Below are positions 1-37,713 of a DNA stretch of 64,000 bases, one piece after another. The translations under genes were made by a program, and so were the position numbers. Positions within the stretch are counted from its first letter, which is position 1. Each line of letters starts with the position of its first letter. The notes below the pieces were generated by a model, which saw only the letters and a list, made by a program, of their open reading frames with translations, searched no databases and was not told the DNA's origin. Source of the stretch: Hespellia sp. (GTDB lineage Bacteria > Bacillota > Clostridia > Lachnospirales > Lachnospiraceae); NCBI GenBank assembly GCA_028694105.1, contig JAQUUC010000005.1:37700-101699 (forward strand). Direction: 5' to 3'.

Positions 1-391
1 CCAGCTGATCGGCAGCATCCTGCTGAACAATCTATATGAGAAATCAGTGAACAATACGATTGCATCCGAGCGGTTAAATGCGATCAAAAATGTACTGACC
101 TACATTTCCGAGAATTACAGCCGTAATATCAGTCTGGAATGTCTGGCTAAGATTGCCGGCATGAATCCGAAATATTTCTGCCGTTATTTTCGAAGCATCA
201 CGGAGCGGACACCGATTGATTATCTGAATTATTACCGGATTGAATCTGCCTGTGAAATGCTCACCACGAAGGATGTCACGATCAAGGAGGTTGCAATCTC
301 CTGCGGATTCAACGATGAGAGCTATTTCATCAAAACGTTTAACAAATATAAAGGCTTAACGCCAAAACGCTACATGGAAGCTGTATTTTAA
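1..391 (+). CDS. AraC-family transcriptional regulator (5'-truncated by window edge)
   Basis: Frame is open from position 2 through the GTG at 47. C-terminal double HTH (LAKIAGMNPKYFCRYF...VAISCGFNDESYFIKTFNKYKGLTP). Confidence 0.9.
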   Translation, partial: QLIGSILLNNLYEKSVNNTIASERLNAIKNVLTYISENYSRNISLECLAKIAGMNPKYFCRYFRSITERTPIDYLNYYRIESACEMLTTKDVTIKEVAISCGFNDESYFIKTFNKYKGLTPKRYMEAVF

Positions 392-4538: not shown

Positions 4539-5543
4539 TTATTTAACAATCTCTCCATCTTCATCCCAAAGGTCATGCCAGTCATCAGCACCTTCCCATA
4601 AGAATACCTGACCTTTTACAAGGCGGTTATTTTTCTCTAACGTTGCAATTGATGCCATTTCTTCTTCTGTTAAAGGATCTTCTGTCACACATTTCAGGTT
4701 GCTTACATACTCATTTTCATGAATTGAGAATGGAATCGGAATCTGACCGCGCTGTTCTGCCCATTTGATTGCGATCACTGCCGGATGCACTCCGTGAGCT
4801 GCTGCAATTGCTTTGATCTCCGGTGTCTGAATATCAGCAACATCTCCCGGCATCATATCTCTTTCCGGTCTCTGTGGTGAGCCGATTGGCATGAATCCGA
4901 TTGGCTGAATATCGTGTGCTACCAGATAGTCAAATAATTCCTGCTGCTGGAAGCATGGATGTAATTCCATCTCACATACAGTTGGCTGAATCGTCAGTTC
5001 CGAGAGAACTGCTTCCAATTTAGGTATTGTCATGTTCGAAATACCAATATTCTTTACAAGACCTTCTTCTACTAACTTTTCAATCTGACGATAAGTACGA
5101 ACAAATTCTTCTACGCTGAATGGTCTTGAATCAGGATTACGTGAATCGGCATCACAATGTGGTGCATGGTAGTTCGGGAATGGCCAGTGAATAAAGAATG
5201 TGTCAATATAATCGCACTGTAAATCCATGATACTCTTCTTGCAGGATTCTTCTACACGTTCGTGCATATCATTCCAAACTTTTGTCATAATATGAAGTTC
5301 ACTGCGTTCAACAACGCCCTCTTCAAATGCTGCCTTAAATACCTCGCCGATCTGATCTTCATTTTCATAGCATGCTGCGCAGTCAAACAGACGGTATCCG
5401 CAGCGAATTGCTCCTGCTACCGCAGCAGACACCTGTTCTGCTGTGAATCTGTCTGAACCGAATGTTCCCATTCCGATTGCAGGCATTGTGTTTCCATTAC
5501 AAAGCTTTCTTTGTGGTACAATACTTGGACTAATCATTTCCAT
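4539..5543 (-). CDS. Aldo/keto reductase (aldose/aldose-phosphate reductase-like)
   Basis: Catalytic tetrad motifs FDCA..Y, TKVW, IHWP, plus IGISN and E.HP. Confidence 0.9.
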   Translation of the reverse strand: MEMISPSIVPQRKLCNGNTMPAIGMGTFGSDRFTAEQVSAAVAGAIRCGYRLFDCAACYENEDQIGEVFKAAFEEGVVERSELHIMTKVWNDMHERVEESCKKSIMDLQCDYIDTFFIHWPFPNYHAPHCDADSRNPDSRPFSVEEFVRTYRQIEKLVEEGLVKNIGISNMTIPKLEAVLSELTIQPTVCEMELHPCFQQQELFDYLVAHDIQPIGFMPIGSPQRPERDMMPGDVADIQTPEIKAIAAAHGVHPAVIAIKWAEQRGQIPIPFSIHENEYVSNLKCVTEDPLTEEEMASIATLEKNNRLVKGQVFLWEGADDWHDLWDEDGEIVK

Positions 5544-5566
5544 TTTTCTTCCTCCTTAAAATTGTT

Positions 5567-6499
5567 TTATTGAATTTTTTTAATCCCAATGTTGCCAAAC
5601 AGGTTCTCCATGTCCTCTATTACAAAGAATCCCGTTTCTTCCCGCATTGCAGCTGCCGCCGATATTGCACTTGCTTTGCGAAGTGTTTCTTCTATAGATA
5701 AGCCCTCTTCAAATCCAAGGGCAAATCCTGCAATCATAGAATCACCGCAGCCCACGGTATTGACTGCATTGATTTTTGGAACAACTGCCTGATAGACTCC
5801 AGATTCACAGACCAGCATCGAGCCGTCCGCACCGAGTGAGATTACCACCACATCCACGCCTTTTGCATGAATCTCTTTTGCGGCCTCAATCAGTTCTTCC
5901 TTCGAATCGCACCGGCTTCCCGTCAGCATACGGATTTCATCGATATTTGGTTTTATCATTGTCGGTTTTGCCTCTATACCCATGCGAAGCAATTCACCGC
6001 TTGTATCAAGAATCACTTTTTTTCCCGCTTCTTTTACAGTCGAAATCAGCTTCTGATATGCAGTTGCATCTAAGCCCTTCGGAACACTCCCTGACATCGT
6101 TACAACCTCTGCATCTTTCACAAGGCCTTTGAAATGTTCCTGAAATGCCTCAAACTCATCCGGTGATACTGTAAATCCGGGTTCCAGAAATTCAGTCTGC
6201 ACCTTCTTTTCTTCATCCCAGATATTGATACAGCTTCTGCTCTCCGCCTCCAGACGGTAAAACTTGGCTGTGATTCCAAACGGTTTCAGGGAATCTACGA
6301 TATAATCTCCTGCGTGTCCGCCGACAAATCCGGTGGCAACTACATTCGCACCCGCGATGGATGCCGGTTTTGATACATTCAACCCTTTTCCACCCGGTGT
6401 ATAGGTACATTCAAGAACACGATTCACCTCACCCTCCTGCGCACCGGAAACTACATATCGTTTGTCGATAGCTGCATTTAATGTGACTGTTAAAATCAT
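5567..6499 (-). CDS. PfkB-family hexose-phosphate kinase (1-phosphofructokinase/LacC tagatose-6-P kinase type)
   Basis: TLNAAID, PGGKGLNVS, IKPNIDE and NTVGCGDS motifs. Confidence 0.9.
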   Translation of the reverse strand: MILTVTLNAAIDKRYVVSGAQEGEVNRVLECTYTPGGKGLNVSKPASIAGANVVATGFVGGHAGDYIVDSLKPFGITAKFYRLEAESRSCINIWDEEKKVQTEFLEPGFTVSPDEFEAFQEHFKGLVKDAEVVTMSGSVPKGLDATAYQKLISTVKEAGKKVILDTSGELLRMGIEAKPTMIKPNIDEIRMLTGSRCDSKEELIEAAKEIHAKGVDVVVISLGADGSMLVCESGVYQAVVPKINAVNTVGCGDSMIAGFALGFEEGLSIEETLRKASAISAAAAMREETGFFVIEDMENLFGNIGIKKIQ

Positions 6500-6511
6500 T
6501 TTTCTCTCCTC

Positions 6512-7561
6512 CTATGCCTGACTGTCAATCAGAATTTTACCTTTCACGGTTCCCGGTGTTTTATACAGTTCAAATGCACTCGCAATCTCGCTGAGCGGAA
6601 CTTTCTTGAAGATAAAGGAATCATCGAATTTTAAATCTCCTGTCTTGAAGTAATGTGCTGCAAGTTCCCATTCTGCGCCAGGGAATGGTGCACTGTATGA
6701 CATCCATGACCCGGTCAGCGTAAATTCTTTGCGGTTCATGTTCTCCCATTCCTTCACCGTAAAGGAAATCTCTTTCGTAGGTGTTCCGACAAAGCATACC
6801 TGTGCTTTGTTGGCAGCCAGCTCAAATGCCATCTTCATGGTAATCGTATTTCCCGCTGTCTCGTATACATAGTCAAAGCCTTTTCCATCTGTCATCTTCA
6901 TAGCTTTTTCCATGAAATTATTTTCCAGTGTATTAATTCCTTCTGTTGCACCAAGACGTTTTCCAAGCGCCAGTCTCTCGTCAGCTATATCGAATACAGC
7001 CACCTTCTTTGCTCCGAAAATTTTTGCCCACTGCATAACGAACATACCAATTGTACCTCCGCCCAGAATGGCCACGGTCTTTCCGCCTTTATAATCGACT
7101 CTCTGAAGTCCATGAAGCGCTACGGTTGCAGGTTCAAAGAATGCCCCCTGCTCAAAGGATACTGTATCCTCAAATTTAACTGCATTTTTTTCAGGTACAA
7201 CGACATATTCCGCAAAGCTTCCATATTCTCTGGAGCCGATAAAACTATAATGCTTGCAGAGAGAATAATTTCCCTTCTGGCAGTCTTCACATTCCATACA
7301 CGGAACAAGCGGAACTCCGGCAACTCTGTCACCTGCCGCTACAGATGTTACTCCTTCCCCAACTTCCTCTACGACACCGGAAAATTCATGTCCCAATACA
7401 TTTGGGAAGAAATGACATGCATCGCCATTGACACGTGGAACATCAGAGCCACAAATGCCGGTATATTTTACTTTAATTAAAACCTGACCTTTTTTGGGTA
7501 CTGGTTTTTCAATTTCCTCATAACGCAGATCATTTTTTGCATGTACAACTCCTGCTTTCAT
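6512..7561 (-). CDS. gatD: Galactitol-1-phosphate 5-dehydrogenase-like Zn-dependent dehydrogenase
   Basis: CGSD, GHEFSG, C-x2-C-x2-C-x7-C Zn site, GGGTIG with an acidic NAD-type residue, and the GatD-like C-terminal GSWMSYSAPFPG.EW. Confidence 0.8.
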   Translation of the reverse strand: MKAGVVHAKNDLRYEEIEKPVPKKGQVLIKVKYTGICGSDVPRVNGDACHFFPNVLGHEFSGVVEEVGEGVTSVAAGDRVAGVPLVPCMECEDCQKGNYSLCKHYSFIGSREYGSFAEYVVVPEKNAVKFEDTVSFEQGAFFEPATVALHGLQRVDYKGGKTVAILGGGTIGMFVMQWAKIFGAKKVAVFDIADERLALGKRLGATEGINTLENNFMEKAMKMTDGKGFDYVYETAGNTITMKMAFELAANKAQVCFVGTPTKEISFTVKEWENMNRKEFTLTGSWMSYSAPFPGAEWELAAHYFKTGDLKFDDSFIFKKVPLSEIASAFELYKTPGTVKGKILIDSQA

Positions 7562-9084
7562 TCTTTACTGCCTCCGTTTTTCTTCATAATATCTTTTAGA
7601 TTTTGATAGATTGCGAGATATGTCTCGTAGTTTTTCTGATAGATTCTGTGGTTTTCCATGTTTGGTTCATGTCTTCTTGTAACCTTCACCGTCATCTTGA
7701 CAGCTTCTTCAAAGCTGTTATATAATCCGACCCCGACTCCCGCCAGAATCACAGCACCAAGTGTTGTCGCTGTGTCGGATGCCGGAACTGCAATTGGTTT
7801 TCCGGTGACATCTGATTTAATCTGTGTCCACAAATGTGAATTCGCTGATCCGCCCATCGCCCAGAGTTCATCGGCCTTCGCGCCGGTCTCCTGCGCAATA
7901 TCGAGATTGTGTTTCAATGCAAGTGCCACACCTTCCATTGATGCGCGCACCATATGTCCTTTTGTCTTGCTAAAGTCCAGTCCGTAATATACGCCTTTCG
8001 CGTTTGGATCCCAGATTGGCGATCTCTCACCGGACATATATGGCAGAAATACTACTCCGTCAGATCCCGCCGGAACCTGCTCTGCAATTTCATTCAGCTG
8101 ATTCAGTGAGGATTTGCCGCATACATCTGCTTTCATCCGCTCGCTCTCAGCAAATTCTCTTTCAAACCATCGCATCACTCCGCCGCCGCCTGTTGTTCCG
8201 CCCTGCAGGAGCCACTGTCCGGGCACAACATGTGGACTTAAAATCAGTCTTGGATCTGCGGCATATGTATCCATACTGATGCTCATACCACCGGCCTGTC
8301 CTCCCTGCTCCTGCGTCTGACCCGGTTTTACGACACCCGCGCCAAGCGTTCCGCAGGCCGCATCCAGTCCGCCGGCAACAACCGGTGTTCCGGCAGCCAG
8401 TCCGCATTCCTCCGATGCCTTTGCCGTGACGTTTCCCACGACCTGATGGCTTGGAACCAGCTCTGGCAGAAAGCTTCTCGGAATTTCAAGTGCTTCACAC
8501 ATCTCGTCATTCCACTCCTGCTTTCTCATGTCAAAACAGTGGATTCCGTAGCCCTGTGACAAATCGTGTGTAATTTCTCCAGTCAGACGAAAGGCAATAA
8601 ATGCATTCGACTGCAGAATCTTGTATATGTTGCAGTAAACCTCCGGCATCTGCTCATGATACCAGACGATTTTTGCGGTTGTGTAAGATGGCTGCAATGA
8701 ATTTCCAGACAACTCGAAAATCCGGTCTGCACCGATTTTTTGATTTAAACGGTCACAGATACTCTGTGCTCTGGTATCCATCCAAATCGGTGTATTCGCC
8801 AGAACATTTCCATCCTTGTCGATCGGGATCGCCGACCAGCTCTGTCCGTCAATACCGACGCCTGCGATGTCCTCCGGTTTGATCTGGTAAGCCGAAAGCA
8901 TCTGTTTGATTGCTTTGCATACCGCACTCCACCATTCATCCGGATTCTGTTCTGCCCATCCTTCCTTCGGATAGTAAACCTGATAATCGCCGGTCGTTGA
9001 TGCAACGACCGTTCCGTCCTTCTCAAATAATGCAATTTTACAAGCACTCGTTCCAATATCAATTCCCAATAAATATTTTTTCAT
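7558..9084 (-). CDS. FGGY-family carbohydrate kinase (xylulokinase-like, substrate uncertain)
   Basis: GIDIGTSACK, WMDTRA, AGGLDAACG, PYMSGER, GGSANSHLW. Start set at ATG 9084 (AAGGAG RBS); the ORF track start at 9111 is also possible. Confidence 0.88.
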   Translation of the reverse strand: MKKYLLGIDIGTSACKIALFEKDGTVVASTTGDYQVYYPKEGWAEQNPDEWWSAVCKAIKQMLSAYQIKPEDIAGVGIDGQSWSAIPIDKDGNVLANTPIWMDTRAQSICDRLNQKIGADRIFELSGNSLQPSYTTAKIVWYHEQMPEVYCNIYKILQSNAFIAFRLTGEITHDLSQGYGIHCFDMRKQEWNDEMCEALEIPRSFLPELVPSHQVVGNVTAKASEECGLAAGTPVVAGGLDAACGTLGAGVVKPGQTQEQGGQAGGMSISMDTYAADPRLILSPHVVPGQWLLQGGTTGGGGVMRWFEREFAESERMKADVCGKSSLNQLNEIAEQVPAGSDGVVFLPYMSGERSPIWDPNAKGVYYGLDFSKTKGHMVRASMEGVALALKHNLDIAQETGAKADELWAMGGSANSHLWTQIKSDVTGKPIAVPASDTATTLGAVILAGVGVGLYNSFEEAVKMTVKVTRRHEPNMENHRIYQKNYETYLAIYQNLKDIMKKNGGSKE

Positions 9085-9107
9085 AAGCGCTCCTTTTATG
9101 TACTCCA

Positions 9108-9962
9108 TCATTCGTTTACTTTTCCATCACATCCGCAGACTCTCATGCGATTCTTCACAAGCTCTGTCACAGCAGCCATTCCAACTTTGCCAAATGCTTT
9201 TGGATCAAATGTCTCCGGTTTTTCTATGATCAGCTTCTTGATGGCATCTGTGTATGCAACCCGAAGCTCTGTTGCGAAATTCACTTTGCAGATTCCTCTT
9301 CTCACGCAGTCGCTTACCTCTTCGTCTGAGATTCCGGATGCACCGTGAAGTACAAGCGGAATTGAAACCAGCTTTTTGATTTCATCCAGACGAGTCTTGT
9401 CAAGTACCGGTGTTCCTACATAAAAGCCGTGTGCCGTACCAATTGCAACTGCGAGTGAATCAATTCCTGTTCTCTCAACAAATTCAGCCGCTTCCTGTGG
9501 ATCTGTGTTGGTATCGGTCTCAACCTCTAACTCATCTTCTTTTCCCCCAACCTTGCCGAGCTCAGCCTCAACCGGAATATCGTGTTTTTTTGCTTCTTCC
9601 ACTACCTTTTTCGTAACTGCGATATTTCCTTCAAATTCCTCTTTTGAGCCATCAATCATAACCGAAGAGTATCCGTCCTCCAGACACTGCTTTGCAAGTT
9701 CGTAGCTGCTTCCGTGATCCAAGTGCAGACATACCGGTACTGTTGCTTTTTTCGCTTCCGCTGCAACAATTGCTGCAAAGGTCTCAACCGTTCCATATTG
9801 AATCGTAGAAGGTGTTGTCTGCAACATGACCGGTGCTTTCACTTCCTCTGCTGCTTTGATAACAGCTTTCACCATTTCCATGTTTTCTACATTGAATGCT
9901 CCTACTGCATAATTGCCCGCCTGAGCGTCTAATAACATTTTCTTTGATGTAACTAATGGCAT
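9108..9962 (-). CDS. Class II ketose-bisphosphate aldolase, tagatose-1,6-bisphosphate aldolase (GatY/KbaY)-like
   Basis: LHLDHG, EAELG, IGTAHG, LVLHGASG. KVNFATE resembles GatY/KbaY KVNVATE rather than FbaA KINVNTE. Confidence 0.88.
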   Translation of the reverse strand: MPLVTSKKMLLDAQAGNYAVGAFNVENMEMVKAVIKAAEEVKAPVMLQTTPSTIQYGTVETFAAIVAAEAKKATVPVCLHLDHGSSYELAKQCLEDGYSSVMIDGSKEEFEGNIAVTKKVVEEAKKHDIPVEAELGKVGGKEDELEVETDTNTDPQEAAEFVERTGIDSLAVAIGTAHGFYVGTPVLDKTRLDEIKKLVSIPLVLHGASGISDEEVSDCVRRGICKVNFATELRVAYTDAIKKLIIEKPETFDPKAFGKVGMAAVTELVKNRMRVCGCDGKVNE

Positions 9963-10095
9963 CTTAATTTCCTCCTTGTGGAATCCAAATTGATTTGTGC
10001 TTTAACTATATGCTGATTATATTCCCCTTTCGCCCATGATTTAATAGAGGAACTTGACAGTTTGAGCTTTATAATGTCGCATTTGCGCAAATTTG

Positions 10096-10124
10096 TTGCA
10101 TACTGTCCATTTTCCTGATAAAAT
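10096..10124 (+). promoter_or_regulatory. SigA-type promoter for the divergent araC gene
   Basis: TTGCAT-17 bp-TAAAAT. Confidence 0.6.
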
Positions 10125-10159
10125 GGAAGCATAAAAACAGATCAGGAAAGGATTTTGTC

Positions 10160-11020
10160 ATGAAAACAGTCTATACCGATTTAAATATTAAATTCCGTAT
10201 CGGGGATATCACTTTTTCTGCATTGAATATCATTTACGAACAGTTTCAGCGCAAAATCCCGAAGCACAGCCACGGATTGGACAGCTATGAAATCCACTAC
10301 ATTTCCCAAGGACACGGAACAGCAAAGATTGACGGGAAAATTTATCACATCGAGCCTAACGCGCTCTATATCACCGGTCCGAATGTAGAGCACGAACAGT
10401 ACCCGGAAGAAGAAGACCCGATGACGGAATACTGCATTTATCTCAAAATCAAAAAAAACCGGACGCAGCACAGAGATCAGGCGGATATGCCTTTTCTGAA
10501 TTTATTTGAGCAGACTTATTTCTGGTATGGTGCGGACACGCAGGACATTTATACGCCAATGCAACAGATTTTCTACGAATTGGAACATGAATACACGGGG
10601 TACATCACACAGGTTGAGACGCTTCTCCAGCAATGTATCGTCAAGATTGTGAGAAATTATGAGATCCAGCAGCGTTCTCCGGTTCATTTTGCCCCTTCCA
10701 ATCTGGTGGACAGTAAATATATTATCGTTGAGGAATGTTTTCTGTACGAATACCGGGATATTACGCTTCAGGATCTCTCCAGACGTCTGGGGCTAAGTAC
10801 CCGGCAGACAGAACGTTTTCTAAAAGAAAACTATGGGATGACATTTCTGCAAAAAAAGACAGAGGCCAAAATGTCTATGGCCGCTGTCTTATTAGGCGAT
10901 TTGAATCATAGTATTACAAAGGTCTCCGATGACCTCGGTTACTCTTCTCTTGAGCATTTTTCACATGCCTTCAAGAAATATTACGGAGTAACGGCAAGGC
11001 AGTACCGGAAACAACTCTAA
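10160..11020 (+). CDS. AraC-family regulator (cupin + HTH), probable regulator of the divergent sugar operon
   Basis: Cupin HSH...YEIHYI..G.G. C-terminal HTH LGYSSLEHFSHAFKKYYG. Confidence 0.9.
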   Translation: MKTVYTDLNIKFRIGDITFSALNIIYEQFQRKIPKHSHGLDSYEIHYISQGHGTAKIDGKIYHIEPNALYITGPNVEHEQYPEEEDPMTEYCIYLKIKKNRTQHRDQADMPFLNLFEQTYFWYGADTQDIYTPMQQIFYELEHEYTGYITQVETLLQQCIVKIVRNYEIQQRSPVHFAPSNLVDSKYIIVEECFLYEYRDITLQDLSRRLGLSTRQTERFLKENYGMTFLQKKTEAKMSMAAVLLGDLNHSITKVSDDLGYSSLEHFSHAFKKYYGVTARQYRKQL

Positions 11021-13349: not shown

Positions 13350-13382
13350 GGGCACATCAGATAATCTGATGTGCCCCTTTTT
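13350..13382. terminator. Intrinsic terminator hairpin
   Basis: gggcacatcaga-taa-tctgatgtgccc (perfect 12-bp stem) followed by cttttt. Confidence 0.8.
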
Positions 13383-13463: not shown

Positions 13464-15260
13464 TTACAGCTTGTAAAGTGGACCATAGTTCTTGCAAGCT
13501 CTGTAATCCTGACCTTCTTTGTTTTCGCCGAATGAGTTCCATGCTGCTGGTCTGAAGATATCTTCTTCAGGTATGTTGTGCATAGATACCGGAATACGAA
13601 GGATTGAGCAAAGTGTGAGTAAATCTGCTCCAATATGTCCATATGCAGATGCACCGTGGTTCGCTCCCCAGTTATTCATAACATCGTAAGCTGTCTTGAA
13701 TGCGCCTTTTCCTGTTGTTCTTGGTGCAAACCATGTACATGGCCATGTGTAGTCTGTTCTCTTCCAAAGCTTATCAGAAACCTCTTCCGGAAGCTGAACG
13801 GTCCATCCTTCTGCGATCTGCATAACAGGTCCGAGTCCCTTTACAAGATTCAGACGAATCATCGTACAAGGCATCTCGTATTTTGTTTCAAATCTTGAAG
13901 AATATCCGCCGCCTCTGAAGTATCCGTTATCCGCTGCGCACCACTCTGTCGCTTTCAGGATTGCTTCCTGATCCGCTTCTGTCACGTCATACCAAGGTTT
14001 AATTACGTGGTTTCCGTTCTCATCTACTGCTTCTCCGTTAAAGTCAAGGCAGGATGCACCTGAGTTGATTAAGTGTAAGAATCCCTGAGATTCTTTTGCA
14101 ACACCTGTCAGCTCATATCCGGTTGCTTTCTTAACAGCCTCCGGGCTCCAGTATGTACGAACATCGGAGAACATAGATGCTGTGTTTGTTAATAATTTTT
14201 CAAATAACATTCCAAGACCGTTGAGTACATCATTCTCTGTAGCAAGGATGTATGGCTCTCTTGCTCCGTTCCAGTCAAATGAAGTATTGAGTAATGCTTC
14301 CGGATAGTCACAGTTTGGATAGAAGTCTGTCCACTGTCTCTGTCCCTGGAATCCTGCTGCAATTGCATTGTGTCCGACTGCTTCTTCTTCACATCCCTCA
14401 GGAAGATTCTGATTTCCATTCATCAGGTCTTTGATGATACACATCATCTTAACAACGAATTCCCAATCAGCTTCTTTCTGTTCAGGTGACTTCTTAATCT
14501 CATCCGGGTTCTTGTCGAATCCTTCTGGGCATTTCTCTTTTGTCCAGGCTAATGCTTTCTGGTATTCTGCTTCATCGTAAATGTTCTCTGACATACGACG
14601 GATTACTTCAACTTCATCTACTGACTCCACACGCATACCAAGGTATTCCTCGATAAATGCAGGATCAATGATAGATCCGCCGATTCCCATCGTAACGGAA
14701 CCGATCTGTAAGTATGATTTACCTCTCATCGAAGCTGCTGCAACTGCTGCACGTCCGAAACGAAGTAATTTTGTCTTAACATCTTCCGGAATCTCTGTAG
14801 CGTCAGCTTCCTGAACGTCATGTCCGTAAATACCAAATGCAGGAAGACCTTTCTGTGCATGTGTAGCAAGTATAGATGCAAGATATACAGCTCCCGGTCT
14901 CTCTGTTCCGTTGAATCCCCATACAGCTTTGATTGTATGCTTATCCATATCCATCGTCTCAGCACCGTAGCACCAGCAAGGTGTTACAGAAAGAGTGATA
15001 TCTACACCCTCTTTTTTGAATTTTGCTTCGCATGCTGCTGCTTCTGCAACACGTCCAATTGATGTATCCGCGATGACAACCTTGACGGGTTCGCCGTTCG
15101 AATATTTCAGGTTGGATGTGAACAGCTCAGCTGCCTGCTTCGCCATTCCCATTGTCTGATCCTCCAGTGATTCTCTTACCTTCAAGTACCCTCTACGACC
15201 GTCAATGATTGGTCTGATTCCGATGACTGGATAGTCCCCAATTAATCTGCTTTTTGCCAT
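13464..15260 (-). CDS. fucI: L-fucose isomerase (L-fucose/D-arabinose isomerase)
   Basis: [49 protein letters not shown]; 598 aa. Confidence 0.95.
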
Positions 15261-15384
15261 GATAAAATACCTCCTTAAATAATAACAACTTATTGTTTGA
15301 TAATGTCATTATAACCCAGCGCGAAACGTTTTTTTTGTTCAATAACGGCAAATTAATATAATAATATTCACTTATCATTTTATT

Positions 15385-26118: not shown

Positions 26119-27918
26119 TTACTTTTTTTGTGCATCAATTCTGTCGTTCAGGTCATTCAAATAGAGCCACCGGTCCATTTTTTCTTCCAGCTCAGCTTCC
26201 GCCGCAGTTTTTTCTTCCATGAGTTCGTTGAGCTTTCCATAATCACTTGCATTCTTCGCCACTTCCTCTTCCAGCGAAGAGATCTTAGCTTCCAAAGCAG
26301 CTATCTCATCATCAATCACTTCAAATTCCTGTTTTTCTTTATAACTGAACTTCAAAGTCCGCTCTGTTTTCCATGAATCTGTTTTCAGGTCATTCCCGGC
26401 TGACGAATCGGAGGAGGAATGTTCCACTCCAGCCTCCGGTCTTATCAGCAGATAATCGGAATAGCCGCCCTCATATTGATGGATGGCTCCATCGCCCTCA
26501 AACGCAAAAATTCTGCGCACAATACGGTCCAGAAAATACCGGTCATGAGATACCGTAATTACAATACCGTCAAAATGATCCAGATAATCTTCCAGAATCG
26601 TCAGTGTCTGAATGTCCAGATCATTGGTCGGCTCATCCAGAATCAGTACGTTCGGCGCACTCATTAAGACACGAAGCAAATACAGTCTTCTCTTTTCTCC
26701 GCCGGATAGTTTTCCAATCAGAGCGTACTGCATAGACCCCTCAAACAAGAATCTCTCCAGCATCTGCGAGGCAGTAATCATGCCATCGGTCGTCTGAATA
26801 TATTCCCCTACCTCTTTCATATAGTCGATCACACGGATAGAATCATCCATGTATTCATTCTCCTGAGAGAAATATCCGATGCGAATTGTCTCACCGATTT
26901 CAATCGTTCCACTGTCCGCAGGAACCACACCTGTGATAATCTTAAGCAGGGTGCTTTTACCGCAGCCATTTTCACCAATGATACCGATACGGTCATTTTT
27001 CAGGAAAATGTACGTAAACTCTTCCATCAGCTTCCGCTCGCCATAAGCCTTGCAGATCCCCTCAAGTTCAATGGTCTTCTTTCCCATTCGCGATGAAACC
27101 GAATTCATTGTAACCGAAGAATCCGTCTCCGGGGCCTTTCTTTCCTGCATCTGTTCAATACGCTCGATATGTGCCTTCTGTTTGGTAGAACGGGCTCTTG
27201 CCCCGCGGTGGAGCCACTCCAGTTCCGTGCGAAGCAGACTCTGCCTTTTTCGCTCAGTCGCAAGTGCCATATCCTGACGCTGTGCTTTGAGTTCTACAAA
27301 TTCCGAATAATTGCCCGGGTAGGAATAAATTTTTGCACGGTCAATCTCATCAATTCTGGTCGCAACACGGTCCAGAAAATATCGATCATGGGTTACCATC
27401 ACGATTGCTCCCTTAAATGCAATCAGATACTCCTCCAGCCAGGATGAAATCGCATTATCCAAATGGTTGGTAGGTTCATCCAGAATCAATATCTCTACAG
27501 GCGCCAAAAGAGCGTTGCCTAAAGCAACCCTCTTTCGCTGTCCTCCTGATAAATGTTCTACCTTCTCATCATACGACGGAAGCTCCAGCCTCTGAATCAT
27601 TGCTTTCGCTTCACTTTCGATAGACCATTCATTCATCTCGGTTCTATTATCTTTTAGAACGGCCTGCAGGATCGTTGTTCCCGGCTCAAACTCCGGAGTC
27701 TGTGGAAGATAGCGCAAATGCACCTGATTTCCCTTCGTCACACTTCCCTCGTCTGTGTTCTCCATACCGGCAACTATTTTCAGCAGCGTCGATTTACCAG
27801 TTCCATTGATCCCAACGATCCCAATCTTCTCATGCTCATTGATACTGAAATTCACCTGATCCAATAAGACACGGTCGGTAAATGCCTTGGTCACATTTTC
27901 CATGGTTAATAAATTCAT
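26119..27918 (-). CDS. ABC-F family ATPase (Uup/YfmR-like)
   Basis: Two NBDs ([14 protein letters not shown] and [14 protein letters not shown]), no TM segments, C-terminal coiled coil. ATG overlaps the galE stop (ATGA). Confidence 0.92.
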
Positions 27919-28931
27919 GATCTGTATCCGTCCGGATTCATAGACTGCCATTTCCATGAGTCTGCACACATCTCTTCGATGCCACGCTCAGCCACCCAGC
28001 CAAGTTCATTCTTTGCATTTGCAGGGTCTGAATAGCACGTTGCAATATCTCCGGCACGTCTTGGTTTGATTTCATAAGGGAGTGTTTTTCCACATGCCTT
28101 CTCATATGCATGAAGAATATCCAGTACGCTGTATCCAACGCCTGTGCCAAGATTGTACACATTCACGCCCTTGGTCTCTTTCATTTTCTCAATTGCCTTT
28201 ACATGTCCGATGGCAAGATCGACAACATGGATGTAGTCTCTGACACCAGTTCCGTCCGGAGTATCATAGTCATCACCGAACACACCGAGGCTCTTTAATT
28301 TGCCGACTGCAACCTGTGCAATATAAGGAACCAGGTTGTTCGGGATTCCCTTCGGATCCTCTCCGATTCTTCCCGACTCATGTGCTCCGATTGGATTAAA
28401 GTAACGAAGAAGCATCACATTCCACTCCGGATCTGCTTTTGCAATATCCATCAGAATCTGCTCCAGCATACCCTTTGTCTGTCCGTATGGGTTCGTAATC
28501 TCGCCCTTTGGACAATTCTCTGTAATCGGAATCTCTGCCGGATCACCGTACACCGTTGCCGATGAACTAAATACAATGTTCTTGCATCCGTGGTTTCTCA
28601 TCACATCACAGAGAATCAATGTACCTGTAATGTTGTTATGATAATATTCCCATGGTTTCGCAACCGATTCTCCAACTGCCTTCATACCGGCAAAATTGAT
28701 GACTGATTCAATGTTCTCTTTCTCAAAGACTTCTTCGAGATCTTCACGATTCAGACAGTCTCCTTTATAAAATTTCAGATCTTTTCCGGTCAGTTCTTTG
28801 ACACGGTCCAGAGACACCTCACAAGAATTTGAAAGGTTATCAAATACAACCACTTCAAATCCTCTGTTTAACAATTCAATACAGGTATGACTTCCAATAT
28901 AACCTGCTCCTCCTGCAACTAAAATAGCCAT
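27915..28931 (-). CDS. galE: UDP-glucose 4-epimerase
   Basis: [44 protein letters not shown]. Confidence 0.97.
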
Positions 28932-29102
28932 GATAAATCCTCCTTGTTCGTCTGATTATAATCTTGTGCTTTCATATAATGCTTTATTGCTGATTGCCTG
29001 CATACATTTCTAGTATACCATGCTTTGCAAATTCATGAAATGCAATTTATTTCCATATTTTATGCAAAATCACCTGATTTTTCAGCAATCTGCTATGTTA
29101 GT

Positions 29103-30023
29103 CTATTTCCACAGATATTTCGGATACAGCCCCTGCGCTTTCATTTCTTTGATCGCTGCAACAACAACAGGTTTATCTTCTTTATATGTAACACCGTACC
29201 ATCTGTCTGTAGACTTGAGCACCTCTACGGTCGCCTTATCCTCTTTCAGGAGCTGATCCACTACACTTGGAAGGAAATATTCACACTTCATTGGATTCGT
29301 CTTCAGATTCTCGTCAAGGAATTTTGGAAATCTGTCCTTTAACTCTGTCAGGATACTCTTCGTGAAACCAAACATATTCATAGACACGATCGATTCCGGG
29401 GAAATACGTTCCCACGTCTTTCCGTCATCCTCCGTAAATGCGGCACCGTCTGCTGTCTTTTCGATATGAGTACGCTCTACGATATTTGCAAGAAAACCAT
29501 TCTCATCGGTCTCGCAGACACCACGCGCAACATGTCCATTCTCTGTCAGTGTGTTCTTTAAAATATAACCAACCATTGTATACCGGTATTTCTCATCATC
29601 CTCGTGTGTAGACAGATAATCATAGATAATCTGAAGTGCATGCTGTCCATAATAATCGTCCGCGTTGATGACGGCAAACGGACCATCCACAGTGCCAAGA
29701 CAGCTTAAGATTGCATGTCCCGTTCCAAATGGTTTCACGCGTCCCTCCGGCACTTCATATCCTTCCGGAATGTTGTGCAGATCCTGAAATACATACGACA
29801 CGTCCATCTGCTCGCTCATGCGGTCACCGATGCTTGCTTTGAAATCTGCTTCATTTTCTTTTTTTATAATAAATACAAGCTTCTCAAATCCTGCTTTTTT
29901 CGCATCGTAAATACAGAAGTCCATGATAATATGTCCCTGCTCATCCACCGGATCAATCTGCTTCAATCCCCCATATCTGCTTCCCATTCCTGCCGCCATG
30001 ATTACTAATACTGGTTTATTCAT
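29103..30023 (-). CDS. Sugar-1-phosphate nucleotidyltransferase (NTP_transferase/GT-A fold)
   Basis: MAAGMGSRYGGLKQ, KPFGTGHA, INADDYYG. Confidence 0.85.
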   Translation of the reverse strand: MNKPVLVIMAAGMGSRYGGLKQIDPVDEQGHIIMDFCIYDAKKAGFEKLVFIIKKENEADFKASIGDRMSEQMDVSYVFQDLHNIPEGYEVPEGRVKPFGTGHAILSCLGTVDGPFAVINADDYYGQHALQIIYDYLSTHEDDEKYRYTMVGYILKNTLTENGHVARGVCETDENGFLANIVERTHIEKTADGAAFTEDDGKTWERISPESIVSMNMFGFTKSILTELKDRFPKFLDENLKTNPMKCEYFLPSVVDQLLKEDKATVEVLKSTDRWYGVTYKEDKPVVVAAIKEMKAQGLYPKYLWK

Positions 30024-30135
30024 TTTCTTACCTCCATTTTCCTATCTTAGGATATACCTATTACCCTAACTCTGTCCACATTTTTTCCAAAGAATCGTAT
30101 GAACTACAAATGAATGACACCTTCCGTTGTATTTT

Positions 30136-31251
30136 CTAAACATATTTATTCACAATTTCTGTCATTGTGTCCCATTTTGCTTCCATATCTTCCACAAGCT
30201 TAAACTGAGTTCTGCTGCGGTCTAAGTTGTGTCCTTCTCTGTGAATCTTAAAATAATGGTCTCCCTCCAGATAGTCCGTTAAAAATCGCATGCCACATTC
30301 AAATGTCATAACCTTTGCCCCCATTGGAAGAAGTGCAGCTTCAGAAGGAAGCAGCTTCCCCTCGCAGCCTTTTAAAAACCCTTCTACATAGCATTCATAC
30401 AATTCCATGTCACACCACACCTTCGAAAGATCCTGTTCATCTTCCACTGCGGTGCTTGCACCAAAACGAATCGAATCGCCAAAATCATTGACAGCGAATC
30501 CCGGCATAACCGTATCCAGATCAATCACACAGATTGCTTTCTTCGTATAATTGTCAAACATAATGTTATTCAGCTTTGTATCATTATGTGTAACACGAAG
30601 CGGCAGTCTTCCCTCCGCATGTGCTTTAAAAAGCACCTTGGTATCTTCCACGCGGTCACGTACAAACTGAATTTCTTTTTGAACTTCTGCGGCTCTGTTA
30701 CAAACATCTGCTTCCACTGCTTTTTCAAATGTTCTATAGCGTGCCTCTGTATCATGAAAACCTGCGATTGTCTCATGCAGAGTGTCTGCGGGGTAATCGG
30801 AAAGAAGCATCTGAAAATGTCCAAAAGCCCATGCACTTTCATAAAAATCCTGCGGCGTTTTTACCTGTTCGAAACAAGTTGTTTCTTCAATAAAGAAATA
30901 CGCTCTCCAATAACTTCCAATGGAATCTTTGTAAAATGCTTTTCCGTCTTTCGCCTGAATGACATTCAATGTCTCACGGCTGGGATTTCCTCCGTTTTCC
31001 ACAATTTTTTTCTTAAGGTAGGAAGTAACTCCCAAAATATTTTCCATCACTTCTTCCGGTTTCTTGAAAATATCATCGTTCATGCGCTGCATGATTACTT
31101 TATGATTTTCCATATCCGGATGTGAAAATACCAGTAAAAATGTGTCATTGATATGTCCATTTCCATAAGGTTCTACGCTCTCAAGCTTCCCCGTAAACTG
31201 GAAATTCTCAATTGCTTCTTTTTTTTTCAAACAAGATGCCTCTCTATCCAT
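30136..31251 (-). CDS. APH/choline-kinase-fold sugar kinase, N-acetylhexosamine 1-kinase (NahK/LnpB)-like
   Basis: GNGHINDTF, QRMN..IF, FH.T..R, RVTHNDTKLNN, IDLDTVMPG, D.LEGDHYF. Start at 31251 or 31275. Confidence 0.8.
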   Translation of the reverse strand: MDREASCLKKKEAIENFQFTGKLESVEPYGNGHINDTFLLVFSHPDMENHKVIMQRMNDDIFKKPEEVMENILGVTSYLKKKIVENGGNPSRETLNVIQAKDGKAFYKDSIGSYWRAYFFIEETTCFEQVKTPQDFYESAWAFGHFQMLLSDYPADTLHETIAGFHDTEARYRTFEKAVEADVCNRAAEVQKEIQFVRDRVEDTKVLFKAHAEGRLPLRVTHNDTKLNNIMFDNYTKKAICVIDLDTVMPGFAVNDFGDSIRFGASTAVEDEQDLSKVWCDMELYECYVEGFLKGCEGKLLPSEAALLPMGAKVMTFECGMRFLTDYLEGDHYFKIHREGHNLDRSRTQFKLVEDMEAKWDTMTEIVNKYV

Positions 31252-33413
31252 TGTTTTTTCCCTTCCTGATTCCATATTTGTATTTTCACTTTTTGTTGAA
31301 CTGGAGAATCTATCTCTAATCTTGTCACCACACCGTGTTCCAATGCTGCTGACACGGTAATTCCATTTTCGCCTCGAAATCCATCAAATTTTATGATTCC
31401 TTTTTTCCACTCATCAGGAACAGCCGGAAACAATTTCATAACTCCGTCTTTCATAAAAAAGAGCATTTCCTGCAGCGCATCCGCACTGCACATATTGGCT
31501 TCCAGCGTAAATGGATGATAGGTAAAATCCGAATACCCGGAATCCGACTGATCTCCGTTAAGATGAAATCCATTCTTTCCACAAAAATGTTTCCAGAATA
31601 TTCGCAGTTGTTCTGCTGCTTTCTCCCCATCTTCTGCAATTGTATAAAGTTCTGCCATCCAGCAAAAGCTAAAGCCGACCCATTGGTTTGTTCCCAATTG
31701 CTCCAGATTACGGATGGTAGCTGTGATGATTTTTCTATCCTCTTCCTTATCCCATTCAATCAGACGAAGGGGATGAATCGCATGTGCATGTGAAAAATGC
31801 CGATGTGACTCTCGCAGCCTTTCATCACCAGAAAGCATTAGTACATCATCCTGATCAACCGCTAACGGTTTTAATTTAAGATAACAGCTTTTCCATTCCT
31901 CTAACTCCTCAAGCTGCAGTTTTTCCGCAAAACAAATCAGCCAGTGGAACAAATAATGAAGCAGTGACTGATCGTAATTTGAATTGGGAATCAAAAAAGA
32001 TGTAATCTCATCATCATGTATTTCCGGAGAGCTTGATATCGGCAAAATCAAATTCCCATTCGAATCTTCTCGTAAAATTCCCAGAATACACATTGCCGTA
32101 TCACGCAGATATGGATATGCTTTTTCTCTTAAAAAAGAATCACTTCCACTGTAGCGGTAAACATCTACAAATGACTGGCAGAGCCATATTTGATTTGTCG
32201 GGGACAGTGAGTACATAGGCCAGCCTCCGAGAGGCTGTGCATCAATTGTCATAACAGCCGGCAGACAAATACCTCCGCTCTCATAAAACTCTTCTGCAAA
32301 ATCCCGCGCTTTCGCCCGAATTTTATCATTTGCAAGATACTCTGTCAAAACAATTCCCTGTGTCATATGATTCGCTTTCAGGTAAGAATAATAGCTCATC
32401 TGTACATTCAAATCATTATGGTAATCGCCTTTCCACGGTGGAAGCTCCAATGTATCTGCCGTCCATACCCCCTGCAATGCCATTGGAACATTTCCACTCC
32501 GGGAACAGCATGCAAGAAAATAATTGCTTAAATACCAGTTTTTCTCCATGAATTTATCCGGAATATCAATACTGCTTTCACTCCAATACTGTTCCCACCA
32601 TGCAGCATGCCGCAAAACCGCTTGATCGTATTTCTCGTGTGCAGCATCCACAGCCAGCTGTATCGCATCTTCTATCCAGCTGTTGCCATTCTTCGAGGTT
32701 GCTATATGATATACCAGTTCTGTACTCCTGTTGCATGAATGTATACACACGAATACACCATAAGCGAATTCCTCACTGACTGGCTGAGTGAAATATTCTA
32801 AAATATGGTGATCGGATATTTCTTTTTGAACGTGAACAGCCCGGGGATAATGCAGATCTTTCTGTGTTCCGTGCGAAAGACTTTGTCCTTGCTCCCCGCA
32901 GCAGTCTTTGTCATTGCTATCTCCATAATCCGGATTTTTAAGTTCCCAACCGAATTCATCCGAAGGCAGATCAACAAAGATCCGTCCATAATCCGAAGCA
33001 GCATGAACAAAACTTCGAATATGAACGGCTCTGTTCTGCTTGTCACTTATCCTGATTTCTGCCTGCGCATCAGCTAATCTTAATTCCGCATGCATCTTCT
33101 CTGTTTCCCTGAACTTAAGAAACAATTTTCCAACCGGTAATTTGGTTGGCACCGGGGCATTGTACGGAGCATCAAAAACAGATCTGATTTCCTCTATGTT
33201 CTTTTCTCTTGCAAGTCTTACAAGATTTGGATAGGTGAATTCAGGTTGACTGATTCCTTTTGGGGGAGTTGTATCCCATATTGCCGACTGATCCAGACTA
33301 AACCGTAAGAAAGATGGTTTTCCCCATATCAGGCAGCCTGTTTTACCATTTCCAAGCGGCAGGGAATCCTCCCAGCGCTCTATCGCATGATCGTACTCAA
33401 TCTTATATTTCAT
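31227..33413 (-). CDS. GH95-family glycosidase (alpha-L-fucosidase/alpha-L-galactosidase-like), cytoplasmic
   Basis: W...LPLGNG, LQGVW...W.GDYH, SSSPE, HRHFSH, EML. No signal peptide. Confidence 0.8.
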   Translation of the reverse strand: MKYKIEYDHAIERWEDSLPLGNGKTGCLIWGKPSFLRFSLDQSAIWDTTPPKGISQPEFTYPNLVRLAREKNIEEIRSVFDAPYNAPVPTKLPVGKLFLKFRETEKMHAELRLADAQAEIRISDKQNRAVHIRSFVHAASDYGRIFVDLPSDEFGWELKNPDYGDSNDKDCCGEQGQSLSHGTQKDLHYPRAVHVQKEISDHHILEYFTQPVSEEFAYGVFVCIHSCNRSTELVYHIATSKNGNSWIEDAIQLAVDAAHEKYDQAVLRHAAWWEQYWSESSIDIPDKFMEKNWYLSNYFLACCSRSGNVPMALQGVWTADTLELPPWKGDYHNDLNVQMSYYSYLKANHMTQGIVLTEYLANDKIRAKARDFAEEFYESGGICLPAVMTIDAQPLGGWPMYSLSPTNQIWLCQSFVDVYRYSGSDSFLREKAYPYLRDTAMCILGILREDSNGNLILPISSSPEIHDDEITSFLIPNSNYDQSLLHYLFHWLICFAEKLQLEELEEWKSCYLKLKPLAVDQDDVLMLSGDERLRESHRHFSHAHAIHPLRLIEWDKEEDRKIITATIRNLEQLGTNQWVGFSFCWMAELYTIAEDGEKAAEQLRIFWKHFCGKNGFHLNGDQSDSGYSDFTYHPFTLEANMCSADALQEMLFFMKDGVMKLFPAVPDEWKKGIIKFDGFRGENGITVSAALEHGVVTRLEIDSPVQQKVKIQIWNQEGKKQWIERHLV

Positions 33414-37666: not shown

Positions 37667-37713
37667 GAGTAAAAGTGGCCGGTGGGAGACCCCATCGACC
37701 ACCACTCTCACTC
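37667..37713 (-). other. Intergenic stem-loop downstream of the solute-binding protein gene
   Basis: Minus strand gagtgagagtggt...gatggg-gtct-cccacc-ggccacttttactc pairs using several G.U pairs. Confidence 0.55.

Follow-up and report, generated by a model that had tools for sequence, protein, structure and literature searches.

We analyzed a stretch of 64,000 nucleotides of a Hespellia sp. genome (the window; positions 37,700 to 101,699 of contig JAQUUC010000005.1, here C75:37700-101699) that carries fucI, a gene which a preliminary description had called an orphan and had placed at the entry of an L-galactose shunt through a nearby tagatose-type operon. With a probability of roughly 65%, fucI is instead an ordinary gene of a complete but scattered phosphorylative fucose system resembling that of Clostridium phytofermentans, and the operon nearby would be linked to the fucose genes without needing FucI. 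Searches for the partners of fucI were run over the whole genome. The gene and its flanks are laid out as follows:

13464-15260, minus strand: fucI, L-fucose isomerase, 598 amino acids (aa), identified by Pfam, NCBIfam and structure alignment
13350-13376, both strands: predicted hairpin, a bidirectional intrinsic terminator common to fucI and a convergent PcsB-like gene
15261-15384, minus strand: upstream spacer of fucI, 124 nt, with an operator-like site, a TATAAT box and the ribosome-binding site AAGGAGG

By family criteria, the fucI product appears to be a genuine L-fucose isomerase (EC 5.3.1.25). The Pfam domains Fucose_iso_N1, N2 and C are all matched over their full length (249, 305 and 148 bits, respectively), the NCBIfam equivalog model NF008220 gives 1033.8 bits (cut-off 775), and TIGR01089 gives 965.2 bits (cut-off 850). 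Residues 4-597 align with 3a9r at 837 bits and the protein also matches 4c20 and 1fui, all of them solved FucI / D-arabinose isomerase structures; the structure alignment brings out two conserved stretches, which we take to hold the catalytic and metal sites known from E. coli as Glu337, Asp361 and His528. Identity to FucI from 80 other Clostridia loci is 80-93%. Each of the searched genomes has one copy, the sole exception being a genome with a distant second match (51% identity), and these single copies are 76-98% identical to fucI from ordinary fucI-fucK-fucU-fucA clusters. Given the domains, the equivalog scores, the structure alignment and the partner genes described below, we are highly confident that fucI is a canonical, non-orphan fucose gene; taken alone it is routine, and the label "orphan" is best dropped. 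That it forms a single-gene unit, as the preliminary description had it, is plausible, because a terminator lies downstream (12-pair stem with 7 G-C pairs and T-runs on each strand) and a promoter-like spacer of its own lies upstream, where the next gene belongs to a TetR/MMPL unit.

The absence of fucK, fucA and fucU from the window, noted earlier, was borne out: in the whole-genome searches, neither a class II (FucA-type) aldolase nor a FucK/RhaB-type kinase nor a FucU fell inside it. The same searches found the partners on C75 and on a second contig, C92, and the orphan status of fucI turned out to be an artefact of the window edge, since C75 itself has a fucK/fucU/importer set about 14 kb from fucI and a FucA-type aldolase is encoded elsewhere:

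C75:28739-37078, minus strand: operon of lacI, ATP-binding cassette (ABC) importer, fucU, a 146-aa protein and fucK, ending 622 bp left of the window
C75:30643-31083, minus strand: fucU, L-fucose mutarotase (PF05025, 153 bits, full length)
C75:28739-30136, minus strand: rhamnulokinase-family kinase, the FucK-type candidate (rhamnulokinase model)
C92:23608-24426, strand not stated: FucA-like class II aldolase, 272 aa (PF00596, 169 bits)
1-391, plus strand: 3' part of a second AraC-family gene (full gene C75:37239-38090), divergent from the LacI/ABC/fucU/fucK operon

The importer is of the CUT2 (monosaccharide) type, with two permeases, an ATPase and a sugar-binding protein, and the FucU is the only copy in the genome. 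Gene context favors reading the C75 kinase as a fuculokinase, although it falls below the family cut-off, because the same operon and kinase family adjoin fucI in other genera: among the 80 Clostridia fucI loci, L052 and L055 have the importer-fucU-kinase operon immediately after fucI and L023 and L026 have it before fucI, and in at least 11 related genera the gene adjacent to fucI encodes a kinase that belongs to this family and scores in the same range (453-536 bits). The C92 aldolase is 46-51% identical to aldolases beside fucI/fucK/fucU in 31 other loci and occupies the same position as Cphy_1177 in the fucose-induced microcompartment locus of C. phytofermentans. Around it lie genes for a glycyl-radical enzyme (PFL-like, 799 bits), its activase, bacterial microcompartment (BMC) shell proteins, PduL, an aldehyde dehydrogenase, an Fe-dependent alcohol dehydrogenase (ADH) and a DeoR regulator, so that the genes for lactaldehyde/propanediol disposal are present. 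Another FucA-like aldolase, of 213 aa on contig C82, was considered and set aside as FucA: it is 29% identical to the microcompartment aldolase, and an aldolase of its type neighbors fucI in one of the 80 loci.

From homology and gene context, on which all steps are based, L-fucose would enter through the CUT2-type importer, its anomers would be equilibrated by FucU, and FucI would convert it to L-fuculose. The rhamnulokinase-family kinase next to fucU would phosphorylate L-fuculose, the microcompartment class II aldolase would split the resulting phosphate into dihydroxyacetone phosphate (DHAP) and L-lactaldehyde, and the glycyl-radical propanediol microcompartment would dispose of the lactaldehyde.

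The operon whose aldolase gene lies 3.5 kb from fucI, with a sigma-factor gene and the PcsB-like gene in between, was characterized through Pfam/NCBIfam families and closest solved structures:

4539-9962, minus strand: five-gene sugar operon, consisting of the next five genes
9108-9962, minus strand: GatY-like class II aldolase (380 bits against a subfamily cut-off of 383)
7558-9111, minus strand: XylB-like FGGY kinase (XylB model 407 bits against a cut-off of 380)
6512-7561, minus strand: GatD-like Zn-dehydrogenase, homologue of E. coli GatD
5567-6499, minus strand: PfkB kinase (family match)
4539-5543, minus strand: aldo-keto reductase (AKR) of the aldose-reductase type (family match, PDB relatives)
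10160-11020, plus strand: AraC-family regulator divergent from the operon (Pfam HTH_18 and AraC_binding)

The GatD-like enzyme scores 311.8 bits against the GatD equivalog cut-off of 550, and its best PDB match is E. coli GatD (4a2c, 1e-73). The nearest solved relatives of the AKR are aldose reductases and aldose-6-phosphate reductases. The closest structure to the FGGY kinase is E. coli xylulokinase (2itm); the kinase is 19% identical, over 231 aligned residues, to the FucK-type kinase of the same genome, which argues against the earlier view of it as a FucK-type C1 kinase acting on L-tagatose. No phosphotransferase system (PTS) component is found among the operon genes, GatABC not being present there, and no match to GatZ (PF08013) is found anywhere in the genome.

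The FGGY kinase passes the xylulokinase equivalog cut-off in a genome that lacks xylose isomerase, and its partners are GatD-like, PfkB and GatY-like proteins; an automatic "xylulokinase" label for 7558-9111 would probably be wrong.

Fucose genes and this operon appear to belong together well beyond the present genome. In a sample of 151 Lachnospiraceae genomes, nearly one per genus, orthology of the operon was scored through its FGGY kinase, which gave a clean tier at 58% identity or more and a next tier at 37% or less. Orthologues are present in 28 of the 151 genera, and fucI is present in 51 of the genomes: 25/28 with the operon versus 26/123 without it (Fisher p = 1.8e-11). Xylose isomerase, taken as a control, shows no association with the operon (3/28 versus 12/123). 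A FucK-type kinase is carried by all 25 genomes that have both fucI and the operon, so that fucI is truly an orphan in none. Synteny, the other check proposed by the preliminary description, points the same way. A fuc gene (counted as fucI, fucU, a fucose-type ABC importer, or a FucA-like aldolase with a FucK/RhaB-type kinase) stands beside the operon in 16/28 loci, within the 10-20 kb covered, and fucI lies within 20 kb of the operon FGGY kinase in nine genera and at least seven different arrangements. In genome G107, the order is importer-fucK-fucI-fucU-GatY-lacI-FGGY-GatD-PfkB, on one strand throughout, and in G134 it is fucI-lacI-FGGY-GatD-AKR-importer-fucU-fucK.

A predicted operator extends this association. 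With at most one mismatch allowed, the core CGAAACGTTTCG precedes the GatY-like gene in 11 genera, the FGGY gene in four and lacI in six, at a distance of 15-100 bp. It also stands ahead of fucU in four genera, where the distance reaches up to 274 bp if a divergent GatY or lacI gene uses the same site, and in one genus it is found 49 bp before the gene for a fucose-type ABC permease. Nearly all of these sites are intergenic. Ordinary fucI loci of other Clostridia, 1.3 Mb in all, rarely contain the motif. Compared with the LacI of this genome, the operon-linked LacI proteins show 38-60% identity overall and about 75-80% in the DNA-binding part formed by the first 55 residues. The shared core together with the conserved DNA-binding domains points to one LacI regulator family and one operator that span the fuc genes and the operon across genera. 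Taking co-occurrence, synteny, the operator and the position of fucU inside the module in other families (see below) together, we consider a functional link between the fuc genes and the operon probable.

Within the Hespellia genome, comparison of upstream regions brought out a perfect LacI-type palindrome, GCGAAACGTTTCGC, preceding lacI, a copy of it with two mismatches in the ABC-operon promoter, and the half-site AAAAAACGTTTCGC at 15321-15334 before fucI, placed between the likely -35 and -10 elements (TATAAT box at about 15308-15313). The 11-mer AA[AC]CGTTTCGC occurs four times in the 3.2-Mb genome, with three of the sites in the promoter regions of fucI, the ABC operon and lacI; the fourth, at C82:34914, lies inside an open reading frame (ORF) of 786 aa and was taken as a chance match. 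The LacI-family repressor beside the importer is thus predicted to control the importer/fucU/fucK operon, lacI itself and fucI. As an observation that would count against its shunt, the preliminary description had named a complete fucK/fucA set elsewhere that is induced by L-fucose together with fucI; a candidate set was found and a shared operator is predicted, although the fucI site is weak alone. The operon itself was considered as a member of this LacI regulon and rejected for this genome: in its promoter (9963-10159) the LacI-type operator was not found, the best match having five mismatches in 12, and an AraC regulator stands there instead. In this genome, fucI and the operon would thus have different regulators; the operon of this genome and of a congener appears to have switched to the AraC regulator, whose gene is retained beside it in G051 and G112.

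Among the operon loci L117-L147, the LacI proteins fall into two subgroups, 48-60% and 38-42% identical to the LacI of this genome, with near-identical DNA-binding domains, the same operator and diverged sugar-binding domains. This suggests one operator read by LacI paralogues with different effectors.

The claim that FucI is the entry enzyme of the operon route is at odds with the module's distribution. fucI is missing from three of the 28 operon-bearing Lachnospiraceae genera, and in one of the genomes concerned (G135) the operon is intact, yet fucI, fucU and any FucK-type kinase are absent. In a class-level survey of 300 Clostridia genomes, with orthologous kinases at 46-60% identity, the module was found in 18 genomes of 11 other families. 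None of the 19 module loci in these families has fucI within 10 kb, and fucI is absent genome-wide from nine of the 18 genomes, three of which are single-contig. Six of the genomes, from five families, have the arrangement [lacI]-FGGY-GatD-AKR-fucU, and five of these six genomes lack fucI. Because fucI is often missing while fucU sits inside the module, the module appears to be built around fucose mutarotase and reductase rather than the isomerase, and FucI does not appear to be a required step of the operon route. This agrees with the reductase relatives of the AKR, the XylB-like kinase and the single, ordinary fucI copies.

The fuc genes and the operon would accordingly form a conserved super-locus with a common mutarotase, a common importer and a single regulator family acting through one operator, and for that reason the nearness of fucI to the operon would not be chance. 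In the operon route, FucU would equilibrate the anomers of a fucose-shaped hexose, and the AKR, acting as aldose reductase, would reduce L-galactose to the symmetric meso-galactitol. Phosphorylation by the FGGY kinase and oxidation by the GatD-like enzyme from the opposite end, in either order, would lead to a D-tagatose phosphate (several kinase/dehydrogenase orders are stereochemically possible), and the PfkB kinase and the GatY-like aldolase would end the route with DHAP and D-glyceraldehyde-3-phosphate. We infer a substrate with the fucose-like ring shape recognized by FucU and with a hydroxyl at C6, the latter because the PfkB kinase and a bisphosphate-type aldolase require two phosphorylatable ends. 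L-fucose itself was discarded as the operon substrate because, as a 6-deoxy sugar, it could not be phosphorylated at both ends and would leave the PfkB kinase and the aldolase without a role. D-galactose is less likely, since there is a normal galactokinase gene, and a lacto-N-biose/Leloir-type set lies in the window. L-galactose is our leading candidate, at slightly below even odds. Somewhat more tentative still is the wider proposal that many Clostridia have an undescribed, isomerase-free route for L-galactose or a similar hexose, which in Lachnospiraceae is fused with the fucose genes; this proposal comprises one super-locus, one LacI regulon with the core CGAAACGTTTCG, and a shared importer and mutarotase. 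FucI and FucK may add a second entry via L-tagatose.

Several points weigh against this interpretation. The fucI operator is a half-site only, with three mismatches to the 14-mer, a degree of divergence found at 80 sites of the genome. When the whole genome was scanned for the 14-mer with at most three mismatches, 86 sites came up, so that at this stringency the fucI site alone is not significant; only the contiguous 11-mer is rare. The operator motif was derived by comparing the same three promoters, and AAACGTTT cores are common among LacI-family operators. The C75 kinase reaches 514.8 bits against the rhamnulokinase cut-off of 527.95 and 153 bits on the E. coli-type FucK model; a separate rhamnulokinase on C92, 63% identical to it, scores higher (567.6 bits). 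The C92 aldolase is below every FucA equivalog cut-off. The co-occurrence counts ignore shared ancestry, and G000, G051 and G036 are close relatives. L-galactose is deduced solely from the presence of FucU and the importer and from the requirement that both ends be phosphorylatable, and galactitol, D-tagatose, D-altrose/D-psicose or another sugar is possible as the operon substrate.

The shunt of the preliminary description would have FucI convert L-galactose to L-tagatose, the FGGY kinase form L-tagatose-1-phosphate, the AKR reduce this to L-galactitol-1-phosphate and the GatD-like enzyme oxidize that to D-tagatose-6-phosphate, with the PfkB kinase and the aldolase completing the route. The scheme should be stereochemically consistent, and FucI enzymes are cited as isomerizing L-galactose (Ju and Oh 2010, cited in PMC3557285 and PMC6894278). 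The resemblance of the Zn-dehydrogenase to GatD also suits it, as do the best PDB match of the AKR, a sugar-phosphate reductase, the position of fucI inside the cluster in G134 and G107, and the strong co-occurrence in Lachnospiraceae. Against it stand the modules that lack fucI (3/28 and 9/18) and then often have fucU, an FGGY kinase that is XylB-like and not FucK/RhaB-like, the FucK-type kinase in all 25 genomes with fucI and the operon, and the different regulators of operon and fucI in this genome; furthermore, enzymes like this AKR normally act on aldehydes and not on 2-keto groups. With fucI dispensable for the module, we regard this specific scheme as quite improbable. A broader role for FucI is unlikely too, although less so: in Lachnospiraceae, the enzyme might serve fucose and also feed L-tagatose into the operon by another order of steps (for example, reduction of L-tagatose to galactitol, oxidation to D-tagatose, then phosphorylation), with the reductase alone being used in other families. 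Linkage is indeed far tighter in Lachnospiraceae (25/28, and nine genera within 20 kb) than elsewhere, and the AKR and fucI do not replace one another but share loci. An AKR with 64% identity to that of the operon is encoded in an ADH-AKR-fucU-fucI operon of locus L040 and also near fucI in L055. Such a role would be superfluous, though, if the AKR reduces L-galactose directly; the FucI equilibrium lies at about 9:1 in favor of the aldose (PMC6894278), and there are intact operons without fucI, as in G135.

Alternatively, the two gene sets could be mere neighbors in a sugar-utilization island of a glycan-foraging gut bacterium, the operon being a PTS-free galactitol or D-tagatose pathway, with which its core genes are compatible. 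Glycan genes are numerous in the window (GH95, lacto-N-biose phosphorylase, GH78-like, GH3), the sigma-factor and PcsB-like genes intervene, the regulators differ in this genome, and 12/28 operon loci have no fuc gene within about 10 kb. Mere neighborhood would not, however, account for a linkage kept through at least seven gene orders in different genera, for the operator and LacI DNA-binding domain common to both gene sets, for fucU inside the module in five other families, or for the lack of co-occurrence of the xylose isomerase control, and we consider it improbable. The least credible option, to which we give hardly any weight, is a D-arabinose route of the E. coli B type, in which FucI would make D-ribulose and the FGGY kinase would be a D-ribulokinase feeding the pentose phosphate pathway. 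FucI acts on D-arabinose and L-fucose with equal activity (PMC6894278), the kinase is of the pentulose-kinase type by its XylB score, and the genome lacks xylose isomerase. The fuc cluster of E. coli B also includes a D-ribulokinase gene. That route would nevertheless leave the conserved GatD-like, PfkB, GatY-like and AKR partners unexplained, and the module also occurs without fucI. An ordinary fucI in a scattered fucose pathway, next to a linked operon that proceeds without it, remains the reading we prefer.

Elsewhere in the window lie further glycan genes:

31227-33413, minus strand: GH95 glycosidase, of the alpha-L-fucosidase / alpha-L-galactosidase family (Glyco_hydro_95_cat, 175.7 bits)
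33403-35562, strand not stated: lacto-N-biose phosphorylase (Lact_bio_phlase, 728.5 bits)

Together with an APH-family kinase (NahK-like), a nucleotidyltransferase and a GalE-like epimerase, these form a lacto-N-biose / galacto-N-biose set at 27915-35562 that resembles the bifidobacterial lnp cluster, here in a Lachnospiraceae genome. Because the GH95 gene adjoins this set, its context suits a role in freeing L-fucose from host or milk glycans no less well than a role in freeing L-galactose.

Further loci touch on the same gene families. In the C75 operon, the gene for the 146-aa protein (C75:30161-30601, minus strand) stands between those for FucU and the FucK-type kinase, about 7.1-7.5 kb to the left of the window start. 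The protein has no Pfam or NCBIfam match and is kept at the same position in L023, L026, L055 and G143 with 44-54% identity; it may be an unrecognized accessory protein of Clostridial fucose operons. On C92, a 499-aa protein (C92:3837-5336, plus strand, locus L101) is encoded between the true rhamnulokinase, which is accompanied by two AraC genes, and an ABC importer; its matches are all weak (Fucose_iso_C, 30 bits; AraA_central; the sulfoquinovose isomerase model, 59 bits with a cut-off of 700), and it may be a non-orthologous sugar isomerase, with rhamnose as a possible substrate. Locus L103 (C82:24790-37508), a sugar cluster of its own, encodes a second XylB-like FGGY kinase (534 aa), the 213-aa FucA/AraD-like class II aldolase and large unannotated ORFs. 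In an Acetatifactor metagenome-assembled genome (MAG), an AraC gene is followed by Zn-ADH, AKR, fucU and fucI genes in one operon (L040:7313-11794), the AKR being the one 64% identical to that of the window, with no FGGY kinase, PfkB or aldolase gene within 10 kb; the same ADH-AKR pair lies just upstream of fucI in a Lachnospiraceae MAG (L055:5960-11803).

Scattered fucose genes have a precedent. In C. phytofermentans, they are split in three, namely, a fucU-fucK-fucI operon, a distant ABC importer and a microcompartment aldolase (Petit et al. 2013, PMC3557285), and the microcompartment locus is induced by fucose and rhamnose (PMC3557285). As in C. phytofermentans and Roseburia inulinivorans (PMC3557285), the fuc genes of the present genome are scattered, with a CUT2 ABC importer and a FucA-like aldolase in a glycyl-radical microcompartment locus with DeoR. 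Unlike in those bacteria, about 14 kb containing the GatY-FGGY-GatD-PfkB-AKR operon separates fucI from fucU/fucK here, and a LacI-type operator is predicted. With the E. coli fuc regulon (fucPIKUR, fucAO), it shares the FucI family at equivalog level and the isomerase-kinase-aldolase logic, but it has an ABC importer in place of FucP, a LacI-type regulator in place of the DeoR-type FucR and a rhamnulokinase-family kinase in place of the E. coli-type FucK, and lactaldehyde would go to a microcompartment. The fuc enzymes are promiscuous toward L-galactose, and Zhu and Lin reportedly obtained, in 1986, an E. coli evolvant that uses the fuc regulon for L-galactose and D-arabinose; in the present system, by contrast, L-galactose would probably be diverted to a separate operon and not cleaved to L-glyceraldehyde.

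The operon itself recalls E. coli gatYZABCD in its GatD-like dehydrogenase, its GatY-like aldolase and its end point at tagatose-1,6-bisphosphate, but differs in the lack of PTS genes in the operon and of GatZ in the genome. The D-tagatose cluster of E. coli Nissle likewise has an aldolase and no GatZ, together with an ABC importer and a soluble kinase (PMC9720028). Compared with both, the present operon adds the FGGY kinase and the aldose-reductase-type AKR, and it is linked with fucU and the fuc genes. The known bacterial pathways for L-galactose are oxidative (L-galactose dehydrogenase, lactonase and L-galactonate oxidation), whereas the route proposed here is reductive, via galactitol; they share a substrate with the operon only if the L-galactose assignment is right. 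One of them is said to have been reported from Bacteroides vulgatus by Hobbs and colleagues in 2014, and that of Luteolibacter LG18 is also oxidative (PMC12632266). Closer in logic are the fungal oxidoreductive pathways, which degrade L-arabinose via L-arabitol and xylitol, and D-galactose via galactitol (PMC11067038). Like the proposed route, these use an aldose reductase, a polyol dehydrogenase and a kinase to invert or relocate stereocentres through a sugar alcohol; unlike them, the route here would be bacterial and operon-encoded, end in a bisphosphate aldolase and be paired with a FucU mutarotase. In the literature, we found no report of an L-galactose, L-tagatose or galactitol-kinase route linked to fucI, nor of a reductive route or of the association between the fuc genes and the operon.

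To conclude, the operon is widespread: of the 151 Lachnospiraceae genera sampled, 28 have it, and it extends to at least 11 further families of Clostridia. Gene order, a shared regulator site and a built-in fucose mutarotase tie it to fucose use, which narrows its likely substrate to a fucose-shaped hexose. If that substrate is L-galactose, the operon would encode the third bacterial L-galactose pathway and the first reductive one, converting an L-sugar wholly into D-triose phosphates, and this would bear on the use of plant-wall and algal glycans by gut Firmicutes.

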